Shown piece after piece: positions 20,592-25,261 of a DNA stretch of 64,000 bases. The DNA comes from an uncultured Clostridia bacterium (GTDB taxonomy: Bacteria; Bacillota; Clostridia; Oscillospirales; CAG-272), in NCBI GenBank assembly GCA_947630625.1, contig CANRIL010000008.1, positions 10,901 to 74,900 on the forward strand, read 5' to 3'. A program made the translations under genes and the position numbers. How positions within the stretch are numbered: position 1 is the stretch's first letter; each line of letters opens with the position of its first letter. The notes under the pieces are model-generated. The model ran no database searches and had not been told where the DNA came from. It saw only the letters and a list, made by a program, of their open reading frames with translations.

Positions 20592-20618
20592 ACGGTTCGC
20601 AAATATCGGACACAGAGC

Positions 20619-20660
20619 AAAAAAATCGGGGGAGCCCTTCTTTCGGGGCTCCCCCTTTTA
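20619..20660. terminator. bidirectional rho-independent terminator
   Basis: GGGGGAGCCC-8 nt-GGGGCUCCCC with an A-run before and a U-run after. It sits between convergent genes. Confidence 0.8.
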
Positions 20661-20672
20661 ATATGTCCTTTA

Positions 20673-22889
20673 TCAGAAGTCCGGCAAGAGATGATCTCTG
20701 CTCTCCGTTATAGCGTCGAACGCCTCATCGTGCGTGGCGTTTTTCACATCGTAGACAACGTCTTCAAGCTTTGCCTGATTGCCGATGAACAAAGAAGTTG
20801 CGTATACGGTCGAAAAACCTGTCCCTTTAAGCTTTCCCGGATCAACTTCCTCCGGCACGTCGATAACGAGATTCGAACCGCCGTGCCCCGAGAGAACGGA
20901 AAGGTCGGTAAGCGGGTTTCCGTCAAGGAACAGCCCGTCGTACTTCACCGCGGGAAGCTTTTTTATATCTGTCAGCTTGTTGTCTGTGAAGATGTATACG
21001 ACATACGACGTACCGGAGCTTATTTTTCCGAGATCGGGCAGCGACGTGAGCAGATTGCCGGACACGTCGAGCGAATAGACCTTTGGCAAGCCGGCGAGCG
21101 CGCTTATGTCGGTCAGCTTGTTTTCGCTCACAACGACCGTCTTAAGACCGGCGTTTGCTTCGATCCCGGCAAGGCTCGTGAGCGAGCAGCCGGAAGCGTA
21201 GAGAGATGTCAGCTTTGTGCTTCCCTTCAAAAACGACAGCGAATCGACCGATTTTACGCCGCTCAAGTTCAGCTTTTCGAGCGTGTCCTTGCTTGCGGAT
21301 AACGTGTCAACTCCACGGCATTCGGGATTTCCGCTGATGTCCACGGTTTTGAGCTGTTCGCAATACTTTATCGGTTCGAGCGTCGTCAGCTTGTTGTCAG
21401 AAAAGTCGACGCGCTGAAGATATATAAGACCTGTGATGGGGGTGAGATCGGAAATCGAATTTCCTTCCGCGTAAAGCTCATTTACGGTCTGCATCATCTC
21501 AAGACCGGAGAGCGAGGTAAGCCCGCATTTACTGATGTCGAGTCCGCTGAGCTTCTTCCATTCGGAAATTCCATCAAGCGACGCAATATCGTTCCCTGTT
21601 AACGAAAGCTGAAATATGTTTTCGGGGTGAGCGATCTCCGGAATTTTCGTAAGCTCGTTGTCAGGCAGATAAATATATGAAAGGTGCTCGCCGCCGATGC
21701 CGCGCACCATTTCGTCCGTGACGCCGCAGTTCTGTATTCCGAGCATTTCAAGCAGCGGCATGTTGTTTATAAAATCGAGCTCATCGATCCCGGTGCAGTT
21801 TACAAACCCGAGATTTTCAACGTTCTCCATCGCGCCGAGCTCGGAGACCGCGCCCTTCTCAAACACGCAGTCGGTGAACATGAGCTCGCCGCATTTTTTA
21901 AACGTCGCGAGTTTTCTGACCTGCGGGACGCTGAGCGTAACGCCTGATATGAGCTGCCCCGGCTCGTCGTCCTTATAAGTCTGCCCGCCGAGCACGAGGT
22001 CGCCTTTTATTTCTTCATACGTCGTCCCGCCGTCCGTTTCAGGCTGCGTTTCAGCGTCTGTGCCGCTCGCATCCGTCTGCTCCTGTGTTCCCCCTGCGCT
22101 TCCCGCCGTCGAGCCGCCACCCTCCGTGGAACCGCCGGGGCTGTCCGATCTGAACATACCCGCGACCGCAAAAGAGAGAACGATAACAACTATGACCGCG
22201 AGCGACGCGGCGATCGCGATGACGGCGCGCCGATTCCGCAAAATCGACGATGGTTCGCTGCCCTTGGCTTTTTCAGGCGATTTTTTCCCCGCCCCGCCGA
22301 CTTGTCCGGCAGACTTTTCACCTTCTTCGCGGGTCGGAACACGCTTTTCCGGCATGCCGGGCGCTGCCTCCGGCTGAGAGGCGGAACCCCCTTCCGGTGC
22401 CGTGACATTTTCCGTTACATGCACTGTCGGCTCGGCCATGCGGCAGCTGTCAAGCATTACGACTCCGAAAAGCTTGTCGAAAAACTCACGTTCGCTGCTA
22501 TACTTATATTTATGTATCGACTGATATGTCGAGAGCTGCATATCCATGCCCGGCGACATTGCGACGGGCTCAAGGATAACGGAGATGAAGTCGAGGTCGT
22601 GCGAGATCGCGAAATTTATCTCCCTGCGGCAATTCTTCGACGCGAGCGAATTTTCCGACACAAACGCAAGGCAGACGCGGCACCGCCCAAGATGCTCCGC
22701 GATCGATTCCGGCCATTCCGATCCGGGGTCTATCCCTTCGTCGTACCAGAAGCGGTACCCGCACTCCTTCATATGCCGGAGGATCGGGAAAACAGCGTCT
22801 GTATCCTTATGGCTGTAGCTTATGAAAATATAGTCCTCGCTGCCGCCGTATGGGATTATGCGGCTTGTCGCGTTTGAAATGTCGCCCAT
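20673..22889 (-). CDS. TIR domain - single TM helix - leucine-rich-repeat ectodomain protein
   Basis: TIR_2 pattern YIFISYSHKDTDAVFPILRHMKECGYRFWYDEGIDPGSEW...LAFVSENSLASKNCRREINFA. RNRR + AVIAIAASLAVIVVIVLSFAVAGMF is the only TM segment. After it come about 15 tandem 22-aa LRRs (for example LSGLDISKCGLTSLSGLEMMQTVNELYAEGNSISDLTPITGLIYLQRVDFSDNKLTTLEPI). Confidence 0.85.
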   Translation of the reverse strand: MGDISNATSRIIPYGGSEDYIFISYSHKDTDAVFPILRHMKECGYRFWYDEGIDPGSEWPESIAEHLGRCRVCLAFVSENSLASKNCRREINFAISHDLDFISVILEPVAMSPGMDMQLSTYQSIHKYKYSSEREFFDKLFGVVMLDSCRMAEPTVHVTENVTAPEGGSASQPEAAPGMPEKRVPTREEGEKSAGQVGGAGKKSPEKAKGSEPSSILRNRRAVIAIAASLAVIVVIVLSFAVAGMFRSDSPGGSTEGGGSTAGSAGGTQEQTDASGTDAETQPETDGGTTYEEIKGDLVLGGQTYKDDEPGQLISGVTLSVPQVRKLATFKKCGELMFTDCVFEKGAVSELGAMENVENLGFVNCTGIDELDFINNMPLLEMLGIQNCGVTDEMVRGIGGEHLSYIYLPDNELTKIPEIAHPENIFQLSLTGNDIASLDGISEWKKLSGLDISKCGLTSLSGLEMMQTVNELYAEGNSISDLTPITGLIYLQRVDFSDNKLTTLEPIKYCEQLKTVDISGNPECRGVDTLSASKDTLEKLNLSGVKSVDSLSFLKGSTKLTSLYASGCSLTSLAGIEANAGLKTVVVSENKLTDISALAGLPKVYSLDVSGNLLTSLPDLGKISSGTSYVVYIFTDNKLTDIKKLPAVKYDGLFLDGNPLTDLSVLSGHGGSNLVIDVPEEVDPGKLKGTGFSTVYATSLFIGNQAKLEDVVYDVKNATHDEAFDAITESRDHLLPDF

Positions 22890-22943
22890 CAAAAAAGTCT
22901 CCGTTTCCGCTTTGACTGTCGGGCAGTTTGCCCTTATGTTAAT

Positions 22944-22952
22944 ATAATATCA
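22944..22952 (-). promoter_or_regulatory. extended -10 element (TGaTATTAT) upstream of the TIR-LRR gene
   Basis: Minus strand reads TGATATTAT, about 55 nt upstream of the ATG. A perfect 16-nt palindrome GTTTTTTGCAAAAAAC lies at 22975-22990. Confidence 0.4.
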
Positions 22953-23130
22953 CAAAGCAGCCCAAAAAAACAGTGTTTTTTGCAAAAAACGTTTTACTCC
23001 GCTGACATTTTCACATCTGTGACGGTGGAAATGGCAGTTTTCAGTCAGGCGATTCCGCAGGCGCATCCCGTCGGCGGCTTCAAAATCTTTGCCCGGTTTG
23101 CAAAAGCAATAAAATCAAGCGCCGCCGGTT

Positions 23131-24093
23131 TTAGAAAATTCCCGGCACAATGACCGAAATAATGAACCCGACGGCAAACGAGACGACGTTCGCCGTCAGC
23201 GCGTAGACAACGGCGACCCACGGAGCCTTCGGCTTTTCTTTCTTTGAGAGCCTGTGCAAGAGCAGCCCGAAAATGACGGCTTCGAGCGCGAACACAAGCA
23301 GCTCGAGCGCGATATACATGACCGCGAACAGAAGCTCGCCGGAACTATAATTTATCACGTTTAAAAGGACGTTCAGTATTATCTGAGTTAAGCCGTTTAC
23401 TCCCGCGATCAGTGCGAGCTGCCGCCGCTCGCGGTAGCCGAACGGGAGCGCGATGAGCATCTCGACCGCGAACGTCAGGATTATCCGCAAAAACAGCGAT
23501 ATCAGCTCCCATTTGAAATTATACGACCTCTCAGCCGAAAGCCACGCGTCGTACCGCTCGTTCCCGCTCTGCTCCTCGTCGAATTCGACGCCTCCGATGC
23601 TGACGCCTTCCATATTGACCGTGTAATAGCTGTCAAACGCGTAATGCTCACACGCGCCGCTGACCGCGAACGTCCCGCTTTCCGGGAAATACAAAAGGAT
23701 CTTGAAGTCATGCGGCGGATAGTATCTCCACGCGAGCTCCTTTGTCTCGTCAACGCGCCAGCCCTGCTGCAAAAAGTAGTATCCGTCCTCGTCCTCGTAG
23801 CGGACAAACGCGAGCCATGTGTCGCGGTCAAGGTCTTCGTACCAACCGTATTCCTCGTTGAACGCTTCATCGAGCACTTCAGGATCGTCAAGTGTATCAG
23901 GGTCGCCCTCCCACGCGGAGGCGGGTCCCGTGCTCTTATTTTTCGACAGCAGCGTACCGTAGCAAAGCTCGTCGCCGAGTCCTTCAAACGTCACGACGAC
24001 GGACGGCTTCGGTCCCATATCGGCGCTGACGTTCACCGTAAACAGCAGCAGCGCCGCCGCGCATATCAGAATTGAAAATAACCGTTTGTTCAT
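23131..24093 (-). CDS. hypothetical membrane protein (signal peptide + acidic extracytoplasmic domain + about 4 C-terminal TM helices)
   Basis: Signal peptide MNKRLFSILICAAALLLFTVNVSA. The extracytoplasmic domain is D/E/W/Y-rich and the C-terminal third is hydrophobic. It is the third gene of the ECF sigma operon. I recognise no family. Confidence 0.5.
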   Translation of the reverse strand: MNKRLFSILICAAALLLFTVNVSADMGPKPSVVVTFEGLGDELCYGTLLSKNKSTGPASAWEGDPDTLDDPEVLDEAFNEEYGWYEDLDRDTWLAFVRYEDEDGYYFLQQGWRVDETKELAWRYYPPHDFKILLYFPESGTFAVSGACEHYAFDSYYTVNMEGVSIGGVEFDEEQSGNERYDAWLSAERSYNFKWELISLFLRIILTFAVEMLIALPFGYRERRQLALIAGVNGLTQIILNVLLNVINYSSGELLFAVMYIALELLVFALEAVIFGLLLHRLSKKEKPKAPWVAVVYALTANVVSFAVGFIISVIVPGIF

Positions 24094-24101
24094 GATCTAC
24101 C

Positions 24102-24602
24102 TCATTTCAATCGAATCTCACAAAGGTCTGTTTCGACGGAATAATATTCCGCCACGGTCATGCGGAGCGAATCGAGCAGCAGCCGCTCGCTCCCGATGTC
24201 CCCGGTCACGCTTATGATATAGCGCGCCTCGGCATCATTTCCTGTCTCCCCGTCGGGATCAACACGGCTGACCTCGATCTTCACGCTTTCGGCAACGCCG
24301 TTTTTCTCGCGCCAATACTGAACTACTTCATCGATGGAAATCTCACTGCCTTCGAGCGTTTCCGTCGACAATGTCCCGTCGCTGAAAACATATACTGTAT
24401 ATATGTCAGGCTGCGCTGTCGGCGGCTCGGCGTCGGCGCGAAATGCAAGCGCGAACACAATCGGTACGGCGACACAGAGCAGAACGAACGCCGCGGCCAT
24501 ACCAGCCCACAAAATCACGTACTGGCGGACTCTCACGTGTGCCGACGCGATATAACCGTCGTCCGCCTCGCCGACCGCTTCGAGAATATCAAGCGAATTC
24601 AA
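24102..24602 (-). CDS. putative anti-sigma factor (single-pass membrane protein)
   Basis: The TTG start at 24602 overlaps the sigma stop (TTGA), with AAGGAGGG 6 nt upstream. The N-terminus NSLDILEAVGEADDGYIASA resembles that of the 5485 protein. One TM helix (YVILWAGMAAAFVLLCVAVPIVFALAF). Confidence 0.6.
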   Translation of the reverse strand: MNSLDILEAVGEADDGYIASAHVRVRQYVILWAGMAAAFVLLCVAVPIVFALAFRADAEPPTAQPDIYTVYVFSDGTLSTETLEGSEISIDEVVQYWREKNGVAESVKIEVSRVDPDGETGNDAEARYIISVTGDIGSERLLLDSLRMTVAEYYSVETDLCEIRLK

Positions 24603-25156
24603 ATCAATCCCTCCTTTTCTAACGTCAACCGCAGCTTTTTTCGCGTCCTTGCGAGCATCGACTTGACGCGGCTCTCGGAATATCCGAGCCGCTCGCATAT
24701 AGTCTTGATCGAGTCGAGATACCAGTACCGGCAGAGAAAGACCTGACGTTCATAATCCGACAGCGAACGGACAAACGCCCTCATCACGTCGGCAAGCGCC
24801 TGCCTGTCAAGCTCGCTTCCGGTCGTGTCCGCGGACACAACGCATTCGTCAAGCTCCCCGAGCGCAAGTACGATCTCGCCGCCCCCGCGCTTTTCGGCGG
24901 AGCGGCGGCGCCATTTGTCGATCGAGATGCGGCGCGTTATCTTGCCGAGAAACGTCGAAAGTATGCTCGGCTTATGAGGCGGCATGCTGTTCCATGCGGA
25001 AAGGTACGTGTCGTTCACGCTTTCCTCGGCGTCCTCCCTGTCAGACAGCACGCCGAACGCGATCGAGTAGCAGTATCCGCCGTATTTTTTAGATGTTTCC
25101 TCGATCGCAGTCTCCGACCGCGCCCAGTAGAGATCGACTATTTTTCGGTCATCCAT
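24599..25156 (-). CDS. ECF-type sigma-70 family RNA polymerase sigma factor (paralog 2)
   Basis: MDDRKIVDLYWARSETAIEETSKKYGGYCYSIAFGVLSDREDAEESVNDTYLSAWNSMPPHKP..., with a C-terminal HTH. Start chosen at ATG 25156, which has GGGAGG about 8 nt upstream. Confidence 0.85.
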   Translation of the reverse strand: MDDRKIVDLYWARSETAIEETSKKYGGYCYSIAFGVLSDREDAEESVNDTYLSAWNSMPPHKPSILSTFLGKITRRISIDKWRRRSAEKRGGGEIVLALGELDECVVSADTTGSELDRQALADVMRAFVRSLSDYERQVFLCRYWYLDSIKTICERLGYSESRVKSMLARTRKKLRLTLEKEGLI

Positions 25157-25261
25157 CCGTTCCGCCTCCCATCGGTTTATACTGAAGAGCCCCTTCACCT
25201 ATATACTCGCAAAAAATCATTCACCGGTCGCATATTTCGCAAAAAAAATTTTTTCAATTAC

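Follow-up and report, generated by a model that had tools for sequence, protein, structure and literature searches.

The gene at positions 20673 to 22889 on the minus strand of our window, the 64-kb stretch of contig CANRIL010000008.1 from an uncultured Clostridia bacterium, encodes a protein in which a TIR domain, a single transmembrane (TM) helix and a leucine-rich repeat (LRR) domain follow one another. The features of this protein and its relatives support a predicted type II, single-pass topology, with the N-terminus inside the cell and the C-terminus outside, and suggest that the TIR domain is likely to be catalytically competent. We lean toward a model in which the protein is a membrane receptor that senses through its LRRs outside the cell and would cleave NAD through its TIR domain inside. 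The model builds on the domains and their fold, a conserved glutamate, the TM helix and the charge bias around it, the size of the family, the accessory status of the gene, and an association with a partner family at related loci; enzymatic activity, clustering, ligand and biological role are what it proposes. Residues are numbered here from the ATG at 22889, so that the glutamate called E91 in the preliminary description of this gene becomes E90. The parts of the protein are as follows.

20673..22889, minus strand: TIR-TM-LRR coding sequence, 738 aa from the ATG at 22889 (list of open reading frames (ORFs) and translation)
22440..22862, minus strand: TIR domain, residues 10-150 (Pfam TIR_2; AlphaFold2 predicted local distance difference test (pLDDT) 88.7, predicted TM-score (pTM) 0.84; Foldseek)
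22620..22622, minus strand: codon of Glu90, the putative catalytic glutamate, in the motif S84-x-N86-C-R-R-E90
22233..22439, minus strand: disordered linker, predicted to be cytoplasmic, residues 151-219, with abundant charged residues, Pro and Ala and the basic cluster RNRR at its end (pLDDT <50)
22152..22232, minus strand: single TM helix, residues 220-246 (Kyte-Doolittle peak 2.99; AlphaFold2 helix 220-242)
22008..22151, minus strand: disordered, predicted extracytoplasmic spacer rich in S, G, T and E, residues 247-294 (243-294 in the AlphaFold2 model; pLDDT <50; composition read directly)
20886..22007, minus strand: LRR solenoid, residues 295-668, an N-terminal beta cap and 15 repeats of ~22 residues (Pfam; AlphaFold2 pLDDT >90)
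20676..20885, minus strand: C-terminal capping alpha/beta domain, residues 669-738 (confident in the AlphaFold2 model)

Each of the modules named in the preliminary description was confirmed. The TIR peptide that it quoted is found verbatim, and residues 21-128 match Pfam TIR_2 (PF13676) with an E value of 6.6e-20 and 72.3 bits, against a cutoff of 28. Modeled alone, the domain adopts a flavodoxin-like alpha/beta TIR fold; a Foldseek search returned 68 PDB matches at E<=1e-3, and all of the 50 that were listed are TIR domains, including those of TLR15, SARM1, SPARTA TIR-APAZ, IL-1RAcPb, TLR1, TLR10, TLR6, MyD88 and AbTir, with TM-scores of approximately 0.55-0.7 at sequence identities of 12-24%. 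The segment AVIAIAASLAVIVVIVLSFAVAGMF (residues 222-246, nt 22152-22226) is the sole strongly hydrophobic stretch of the protein and stands just after RNRR, as had been claimed; in the full-length AlphaFold2 model, which was built from 49 homologs and has a mean pLDDT of 81.9, this region forms a helix from residue 220 to 242 with pLDDT <50. No signal peptide is evident, the highest 9-residue hydropathy within the first 30 residues being 0.56. The claimed S/G/T/E-rich spacer is present, and possibly spans the cell wall. The LRR part matches Pfam LRR_4 (E 5.9e-27), with LRR_8 and LRR_EndoS likewise exceeding their cutoffs, and the model contains 15 LRR beta-strands between residues 329 and 665 at spacings of 19-24 residues, mostly 22, in agreement with the approximately 15 tandem repeats counted earlier. 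The repeat register is that of the bacterial 22-residue type, LxxLxLxxNxIxDIxxL. Internalin A was the best Foldseek match of the ectodomain (E 5e-12), followed by Roco LRRs, Leptospira LRR proteins and SHOC2, and Toll-like receptor (TLR) ectodomains ranked below internalin A. The C-terminal cap comprises strands 670-678, 692-700 and 714-717 and helices 702-711 and 720-729 in the model, and residues 669-738 have no Pfam family match.

The predicted topology is a property of the family. Exactly one hydrophobic helix was found in 119 of 120 homologs, always C-terminal of the TIR domain. The 15 residues before this helix contain on average 5.25 Lys and Arg, compared to 1.84 in the 15 residues after it, and the N-terminal flank is the richer in Lys and Arg in 112 of the 119 homologs, equal in 7 and poorer in none (Wilcoxon p = 3e-20). 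The same TIR-TM module also carries PASTA, C-type lectin or BspA-type LRR domains in place of the LRRs seen here: one paralog combines it with PASTA and C-type lectin domains (L052:7983-9485), another with a BspA-type LRR_5 domain (L033:7986-10625), and an LRR homolog has a PASTA match on record (P0063). The C-terminal parts of many other TIR-TM homologs have no Pfam match. PASTA and C-type lectin domains are extracytoplasmic binding modules. Taken together, the charge bias, the lack of a signal peptide and the PASTA and lectin tails indicate that the TIR domain lies inside and the LRRs outside, which is the placement that had been proposed for the window protein from the positive-inside rule, and the description of TLR modules in reverse order in a type II protein is accurate. 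One protein with the same TIR module has a C-terminal FHA domain and no TM helix (L032:8007-10487).

Conservation within the TIR domain points to an active site. We aligned 45-49 homologs, with overall identity down to approximately 25%, and found F22, S24, Y25, H27, G44, W48, D50, G52, I53, E58, W59, E61, S84, N86 and E90 to be invariant; E90 is invariant in 49 aligned homologs (alignments A1, A2 and A4). The codon given earlier for the catalytic-position glutamate is correct, and the residue is not lost among the homologs aligned. We take the equivalent glutamate to be the catalytic position in AbTir. In an alignment of a TIR-only profile with PDB sequences, the E90 column holds Glu in Cat1 (WCWDEL), the bacterial TIR 7uxr (WTEYEL) and TLR15 (CQYEL), and Gln in MyD88. 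It is the position on which NADase activity is reported to depend in SARM1 and in TIRs of bacteria and plants (PMC7075850).

The family to which the protein belongs is large and shows the pattern expected of receptors. A word-indexed protein search returned 537 proteins at E<=1e-5, and nearly all of the best 120 have both TIR_2 and LRR domains; their names are solely "TIR domain-containing protein" or "leucine-rich repeat domain-containing protein", and one of them (P0099) has a pair of TIR domains and lacks a TM helix. Species-representative genomes hold at least 556 confirmed places, mainly in Oscillospiraceae, Lachnospiraceae, Ruminococcus, Erysipelotrichaceae (Solobacterium) and some Coriobacteriia, most of them gut and rumen Clostridia; the few members in Bacteroidales have no TM helix. 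When the TIR domain served by itself as the query of an exhaustive phmmer search, clusters at 50% identity numbered 1,157 with E<=1e-30 and 5,843 with E<=1e-10. In 69 of 124 new top representatives from this search the TIR domain is followed by a TM helix; 13 of the 69 carry LRRs and 43 carry other tails of at least 100 residues. When the window protein is compared to its homologs P0002-P0010, identity is 62-74% in the TIR domain and 37-46% in the LRRs, and the tethers are not conserved (mean column majority of 0.25 in the cytoplasmic linker). Some genomes contain several or tandem paralogs. The family thus shows receptor-like evolution, in which a conserved signaling domain is joined to a divergent sensor, ectodomains are swapped and paralogs expand. 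A metagenome scan for close orthologs gave nothing above 58% identity, a value reached in the TIR part alone, and in species-representative genomes we found no close ortholog, the best full-length identity being approximately 32-35%.

The representatives also included soluble proteins in which two to five TIR domains stand in tandem. Four of these (P0121, P0125, P0126 and P0154) carry four to five copies of the same TIR subtype and have no TM helix; such pre-assembled arrays may bear on the requirement for oligomerization.

We did not find a bacterial TIR-TM-LRR protein or other membrane-anchored TIR receptor described in a literature search whose coverage left out most subscription journals. 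A 2025 survey of TIR defense systems does not mention LRRs, and places transmembrane helices in effectors only (10.64898/2025.12.03.692087). This is consistent with the preliminary statement that characterized bacterial TIR systems are soluble. The architecture is common and already deposited, with the 1,157 clusters noted above, but the family is uncharacterized. TIR enzymology is known, and we found no paper describing the membrane-receptor configuration or a family-level link to ryanodine receptor (RyR)-domain channels.

Examination of the genes beside related TIR-TM genes revealed this link. The commonest neighbor is an RyR-type protein family, directly adjacent in either orientation at 21 of 75 non-redundant loci; of the 50 loci flanked by 2 kb or more in each direction, 13 have it, as do 8 of 23 LRR-type loci. 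These frequencies are approximate, as some loci are closely related to each other. The partner occurs in two subtypes. Subtype B proteins are 485-600 aa in length; of the four scanned, three exceed the Pfam cutoffs both for a K+-channel pore (Ion_trans_2) and for an RyR domain (PF02026) at the C-terminus. Their pore has a TVGYGD filter and matches KvAP (phmmer E 1e-11), and their RyR domain matches RyR1 Repeat12 (phmmer E 2.8e-17). Subtype A proteins are 584-690 aa, with 2-4 N-terminal TM helices and a divergent C-terminus with an insertion and the motif EHLRW...GW/F...H.CLV.W. No Pfam family exceeds its cutoff in subtype A (RyR E 0.088), and it looks RyR-like by homology to subtype B, from hidden Markov model (HMM) searches and BLAST clustering, and by an EH.RW...H.CL motif. 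The two subtypes lie side by side at three loci (L061, L075 and L027). Members are located as follows, the subtype A entries being 584-652 aa long.

L075:3851-5488, minus strand: subtype B, Ion_trans_2 and RyR (Pfam)
L061:1499-3301, minus strand: subtype B, Ion_trans_2 and RyR (Pfam)
L027:3722-5269, minus strand: subtype B, Ion_trans_2 and RyR (Pfam)
L070:6507-7964, plus strand: subtype B, RyR alone in Pfam
L063:5789-7510, minus strand: subtype B member, outside the Pfam scan
L001:7587-9338: subtype A, beside a TIR-TM-LRR gene
L007:2141-3898: subtype A, beside a TIR-TM-LRR gene
L008:10180-11934: subtype A, beside a TIR-TM-LRR gene
L009:10107-11981: subtype A, beside a TIR-TM-LRR gene
L019:1042-3000: subtype A, beside a TIR-TM-LRR gene
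L035:6111-7970: subtype A, beside a TIR-TM-LRR gene
L071:6054-7922: subtype A, beside a TIR-TM-LRR gene; there are others

According to two 2026 preprints, phage RyR-domain proteins act on 2'cADPR, 3'cADPR and cADPR (cyclic ADP-ribose), all of them made by TIRs, by binding or by cleavage; these nucleotides are contacted by H75, W78, H100 and D117 in RyDEP and by H129, W132, H154 and D171 in RyR-Tad (PMC13232231; 10.64898/2026.06.04.730250). Five subtype B RyR domains have H, W(+3), H(+22) and D(+17), exactly the spacing of the contacts in RyDEP and RyR-Tad, suggesting that the partner is a credible receiver, or degrader, of a TIR-made nucleotide. Subtype B proteins are accordingly candidates, on sequence grounds, for nucleotide-gated channels acting downstream of the TIR domain. 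No report of cellular RyR-domain proteins as partners of TIR genes was found in the literature searched.

Some further loci show other arrangements. In two Bacteroidales metagenome-assembled genomes (MAGs), a protein of 784-801 aa stands beside a TM-less member of the TIR subtype: one is an AAA ATPase-RyR protein (L086:3341-5746), and the other, outside the Pfam scan, matches the partner-family HMM with E 1e-7 (L056:5598-7952). The TIR-RyR association seems to extend past membrane-anchored forms and past Firmicutes. In Solobacterium MAGs (L004:1476-9917; also L005, L006 and L021, and similarly L013), a cluster divergent from the TIR-TM-LRR gene encodes a multi-TM protein of 686 aa that is RyR-like, a NUDIX hydrolase, a TIR_2 protein of 649 aa and a TIR-NACHT protein of 1249 aa. 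This cluster looks like a TIR-rich conflict island. At seven loci (L017, L032, L033, L037, L051, L057 and L067), in a region approximately 6 kb upstream of the TIR gene, a STAS-domain protein of 120-138 aa is encoded on the same strand, with two large ABC transporters further upstream in this subfamily, one of which has a C39 peptidase domain; by analogy, this conserved operon recalls peptide or bacteriocin export.

The 134 immediate neighbors at the 75 loci are mostly housekeeping genes by Pfam, among them RecA, SmpB, Lgt and ATP synthase. Few match PADLOC defense models, no defense family matches more than two neighbors, and several of the listed models may be one protein. A defense-island context, which the preliminary description had raised for checking, is unsupported by this handful of matches, the Solobacterium cluster being the one exception.

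In the window itself, the gene is an accessory insertion. The acetate kinase AckA encoded nearby is 93-94% identical to that of uncultured rabbit-gut Clostridia, related to Ruminococcus and Oscillospiraceae, and from this placement the organism should have a monoderm envelope. The surrounding genes have housekeeping and metabolic functions (a PreP-like M16 peptidase, GH43, the phosphotransferase system (PTS) component EIIC and acetate kinase). Upstream, the same strand encodes an extracytoplasmic function (ECF) sigma factor, what is probably an anti-sigma factor, and a membrane protein of 320 aa. Both of the closest genomes (L274 and L253) keep the order ackA-ECF-(anti-sigma)-membrane protein, followed by the convergent EIIC-GH43, and window positions 20593-23167, which hold the TIR-LRR gene and its promoter region, have no counterpart in them. 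The slot that the genes for the 320-aa membrane protein and the convergent PTS EIIC enclose is variable, measuring approximately 300 nt in L274 (5909-6180) and containing 1.5 kb of unrelated genes in L253 (4985-6500). Strains with the protein P0001 have the same layout as the window. Absence from the two relatives together with this shared layout shows that the TIR-LRR gene is accessory, having been inserted at a variable spot and become fixed in a single lineage. The slot in L253 contains an ORF of 201 aa that resembles the C-terminal part of the 320-aa membrane protein, and another of 253 aa that is histidine phosphatase-like by eye.

We considered the operon for the ECF sigma factor, anti-sigma factor and 320-aa membrane protein as a conserved partner and rejected it, as it persists in relatives without the TIR-LRR gene; none of 80 homologous ECF loci and none of 79 ackA loci carry a TIR gene of the family, which answers in the negative the question, raised earlier for checking, of whether this operon is conserved with the TIR-TM-LRR architecture. 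The operon (window 23131-25198, minus strand) is 64-66% identical to its counterparts, compared to 88-94% for the flanking ackA and EIIC genes, and may be either fast-evolving or replaced. Two of its ORFs (24102-24698 and 24599-25198) overlap by 100 nt, and the P0001 contigs call them at 185 and 166 aa; the overlap probably results from an over-extended anti-sigma start. No ThsA, SIR2/SLOG, Macro, RyR or other effector gene lies near the TIR-TM-LRR gene, as had been noted, and genes of the ThsA, SIR2 and RyR types are absent across the whole window.

The expression signals and composition of the gene were read directly from the sequence or by the scans named below.

22892, minus strand: alternative TTG start (ORF 20673..22892, 739 aa)
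20673-20675, minus strand: stop codon
22899..22902, minus strand: GGAG ribosome-binding site, spaced 6 nt from the TTG and 9 nt from the ATG (direct reading)
22944..22952, minus strand: extended -10-like element TGATATTAT (TGnTATTAT; direct reading)
22975..22990, no strand: perfect 16-nt palindrome GTTTTTTGCAAAAAAC, upstream of the promoter-like element (direct reading)
20628..20655, no strand: strong bidirectional intrinsic terminator with a 10-11 bp stem, 9 of them G-C, and T-runs on both strands (terminator scan)

The ORF from 20673 to 22892 is the longest of its region, and P0001, a 94% identical protein, is called from the same ATG as the window gene. The extended -10 element attributed to the gene is present at 22944-22952, but a consensus scan found no -35/-10 pair there. 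The palindrome GTTTTTTGCAAAAAAC is present where it had been placed, and is a possible operator. The terminator stands directly after the TIR-LRR stop codon and is common to the convergent PTS EIIC gene; taken with the 238-nt gap upstream, it implies that the TIR-LRR gene is probably monocistronic. A foreign origin, which had been suggested from spot counts, is not apparent in the composition: the GC content is 54.4% in the gene compared to 55.9% in the window, and the LRR part (51.8%) and TIR part (52.9%) both fall within the range of the window's 1-kb bins (48.8-63.9%). We rejected a foreign origin by composition for this reason.

In the receptor-enzyme model that we favor, the internalin-like ectodomain of 15 repeats, held out on its flexible S/G/T/E spacer, would bind an extracellular or cell-surface ligand, and the TIR domain would hang inside the cell on a disordered tether of approximately 70 residues. 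TIR NADases need self-association to form their active site. Tethers that are disordered inside as well as outside the cell make a conformational relay unlikely, and the ligand would instead cluster the ectodomains and so bring the TIR domains together, in a manner that may be likened to TLR dimerization and to the induced-proximity activation of plant TIRs. The output would be cleavage of NAD+, resulting either in depletion or in an ADP-ribose-derived signal such as a cADPR isomer. In relatives, at roughly a quarter to a third of loci, the adjacent RyR-domain membrane protein or K+ channel would be the likely receiver. The window gene stands alone, and could deplete NAD+ directly or signal to an unlinked effector.

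Several observations weigh against this model. The topology was assigned from hydropathy, charge bias and domain logic, without a dedicated predictor. The glutamate is no proof of activity, given that TLR15 has it at the same column and that TIRs of the TLR1/2/6/10 type often carry it without reported NADase activity (PMC7075850). Many NADase TIRs have a Trp four residues before the Glu (WxxxE motif), and in this family that residue is invariably Asn. The protein matches the PADLOC models for ThsB and TIR-SAVED weakly (E 1e-3 to 1e-5); PADLOC ThsB matches have E values of 8.6e-4 to 0.022, weak Pfam ThsB_TIR matches occur in some paralogs only, and PADLOC gave no system-level match for the TIR-TM-LRR protein. 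The RyR partner is missing from 37 of the 50 related loci and absent from the window (tblastn and HMM searches over six frames), and genes at the related loci were called simply as the longest ORFs.

Within the receptor-enzyme model, two biological roles can be postulated. It is possible, though we hold it tentatively, that the protein is an anti-phage sensor whose LRRs detect adsorption or a receptor-binding protein and whose TIR domain depletes NAD+ or signals, giving a response before or as phage DNA enters. Bacterial TIR NADases described so far are overwhelmingly defense proteins (10.64898/2025.12.03.692087), and an accessory gene absent from its locus in relatives with 93-94% identical AckA, the Solobacterium cluster of RyR-like, NUDIX, TIR and TIR-NACHT genes adjoining a family gene, the resemblance of the RyR partner to Thoeris-type signal-binding effectors, and diversified ectodomains with several paralogs in some genomes would all fit such a role. 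However, the neighbors are mostly housekeeping genes with few PADLOC matches, the protein itself matches no PADLOC system, and no known defense system senses phage from outside the membrane.

The other role, which we think less probable than phage sensing, is that of a physiological sensor of a host, dietary, envelope or neighbor-cell ligand, whose output tunes ion flux or growth and does not kill. The housekeeping genomic contexts are consistent with this, as are paralogs with PASTA (muropeptide-binding) and C-type lectin ectodomains, the concentration of the family in gut and rumen Clostridia, the K+ channels with RyR domains among the partners, which would suit graded signaling, and the STAS proteins and C39-peptidase ABC exporters of some subfamilies, reminiscent of peptide signaling. 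Opposed to it, no TIR-based physiological signaling outside conflict systems has been established in bacteria, and presence/absence polymorphism among close relatives fits conflict genes better.

Cutting across these roles, a more ambitious conjecture, for which our confidence is low, joins the family to its partners in a bacterial outside-in innate-receptor pathway: TIR-TM-LRR, -PASTA or -lectin proteins clustered by ligand would produce a cADPR-type nucleotide that gates an RyR membrane protein or K+ channel. The window gene would then be an orphan receptor that depletes NAD+ or talks to an unlinked RyR effector.

It is unlikely that the protein is instead an internalin-like adhesin, in which the TM helix is a mere anchor and the TIR domain a non-enzymatic oligomerization or scaffold module. 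The ectodomain is indeed nearest to internalin A and other bacterial LRR adhesins, many animal TIR domains act as scaffolds, and the WxxxE Trp is replaced by Asn. However, deeply diverged homologs all keep the catalytic-position Glu and approximately 20 further TIR residues, a pattern that favors constraint on an active site, and the TIR-TM module is kept while ectodomains swap. An anchor needs no conserved 150-residue domain on a 70-residue tether, the scores against NCBIfam internalin models (58-64 bits) fall far below their cutoffs (1275-1600), and the association with RyR partners would be left unexplained. A reversed topology, with an extracellular TIR acting as an ecto-NADase or as a host-directed, Tcp-like effector and with cytoplasmic LRRs, recalls TcpB and TcpC, which act on hosts, and the cytoplasmic LRR proteins (Roco, NLRs) among the fold matches, but is highly improbable given that no signal peptide would export the 220-residue N-terminal part, that the charge bias is N-in in 112 of 119 homologs and never reversed, and that the PASTA and C-type lectin domains of paralogs lie on the C-terminal side. 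The probability that remains beyond the receptor-enzyme, adhesin and reversed-topology readings we leave to models not considered here.

The characterized bacterial TIR systems that we found in the literature all sense intracellular events. If the receptor-enzyme model is true, this family would be the first in which bacterial surface sensing is coupled to NAD-derived signaling or to NAD+ depletion, in an architecture that converges on the TLRs. With more than 1,000 clusters (50% identity) in gut and rumen Clostridia, it may shape interactions between phages and bacteria, among bacteria, and between hosts and microbes. The RyR membrane proteins and K+ channels beside TIR genes offer a concrete effector hypothesis, and touch the old question of RyR Repeat12 domains as cADPR sensors. 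Should the more speculative outside-in pathway also prove true, it would be a prokaryotic counterpart both of TLR-style surface sensing and of the animal axis from cADPR to the ryanodine receptor.

With the Listeria internalins the window protein has in common 15 repeats of approximately 22 residues, internalin A as the best structural match and a predicted extracellular location on a monoderm, and it partially matches the NCBIfam internalin and NEAT-LRR models. The internalin scores are 58.5 and 63.8 bits, compared to cutoffs of 1600 and 1275. Unlike internalins, it has no Sec signal peptide and no LPXTG or GW anchor, and an Ig-like inter-repeat domain was not detected; it is anchored instead by a TM helix on the N-terminal side of the repeats, with a predicted cytoplasmic TIR domain. 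It is not a class 1 internalin, and only the LRR type agrees. The Tcp effectors TcpB and TcpC are soluble, host-delivered proteins with a C-terminal TIR, whereas the TIR domain of the window protein is N-terminal, followed by a TM helix and predicted to lie inside.

Plant TIRs make cADPR-type signals. Plant LRR receptors and TIR-NLRs resemble the window protein in joining an LRR sensor to an intracellular signaling domain, but the surface LRR receptors of plants use a kinase, not a TIR, and plant TIR-NLRs are cytoplasmic and carry a central NB-ARC ATPase, which is absent from the window protein by Pfam. SARM1, SPARTA TIR-APAZ, AbTir and Cat1 have the TIR fold and the Glu in common with it, and its activity would be expected to depend on assembly as in these proteins. 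The regulators differ, being ARM-SAM, Argonaute, coiled-coil or CARF modules, in contrast to an extracellular LRR domain acting across the membrane.

Thoeris ThsB shares a TIR_2-type domain and the catalytic-position Glu with the window protein, and 13 of the 50 related loci have an adjacent RyR-membrane or channel protein resembling ThsF, ThsH and type II ThsA (10.64898/2025.12.03.692087; PMC13232231). However, known ThsB proteins are soluble and cytoplasmic, whereas the window TIR protein is membrane-anchored with a predicted extracellular sensor, and it has no adjacent effector, weak ThsB matches and no defense-island enrichment. RyR-domain effectors are not among the approximately 30 effector types in the 2025 survey, in the text of which "RyR" does not occur (10.64898/2025.12.03.692087). 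The window gene does not look like a Thoeris system, and the related loci look like a Thoeris-like pair with unreported types of sensor and effector.

The TLRs are the closest counterpart in overall design. They have the same three modules in the same placement inside and outside the cell, are likewise single-pass, and provide TLR15, TLR1, TLR10 and TLR6 among the best TIR fold matches; induced proximity is a plausible mode of activation for the window protein too. The window protein is nevertheless no member of the TLR family, as orientation, LRR type and caps all differ, and nothing points to common descent for the architecture as a whole. TLRs are type I proteins with a signal peptide and a C-terminal TIR, whereas the window protein is predicted to be type II, has an N-terminal TIR and lacks a signal peptide; TLR repeats are of 24 residues with cysteine caps, in contrast to the 22-residue, internalin-type repeats of the window protein, in which LRRNT and LRRCT have no Pfam match. 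The window protein also has long disordered tethers on both sides of the membrane, and its output would probably be enzymatic, through cleavage of NAD+, compared to the recruitment of adaptors by TLRs. The more economical reading is that the TLR-like architecture was assembled independently from common modules.

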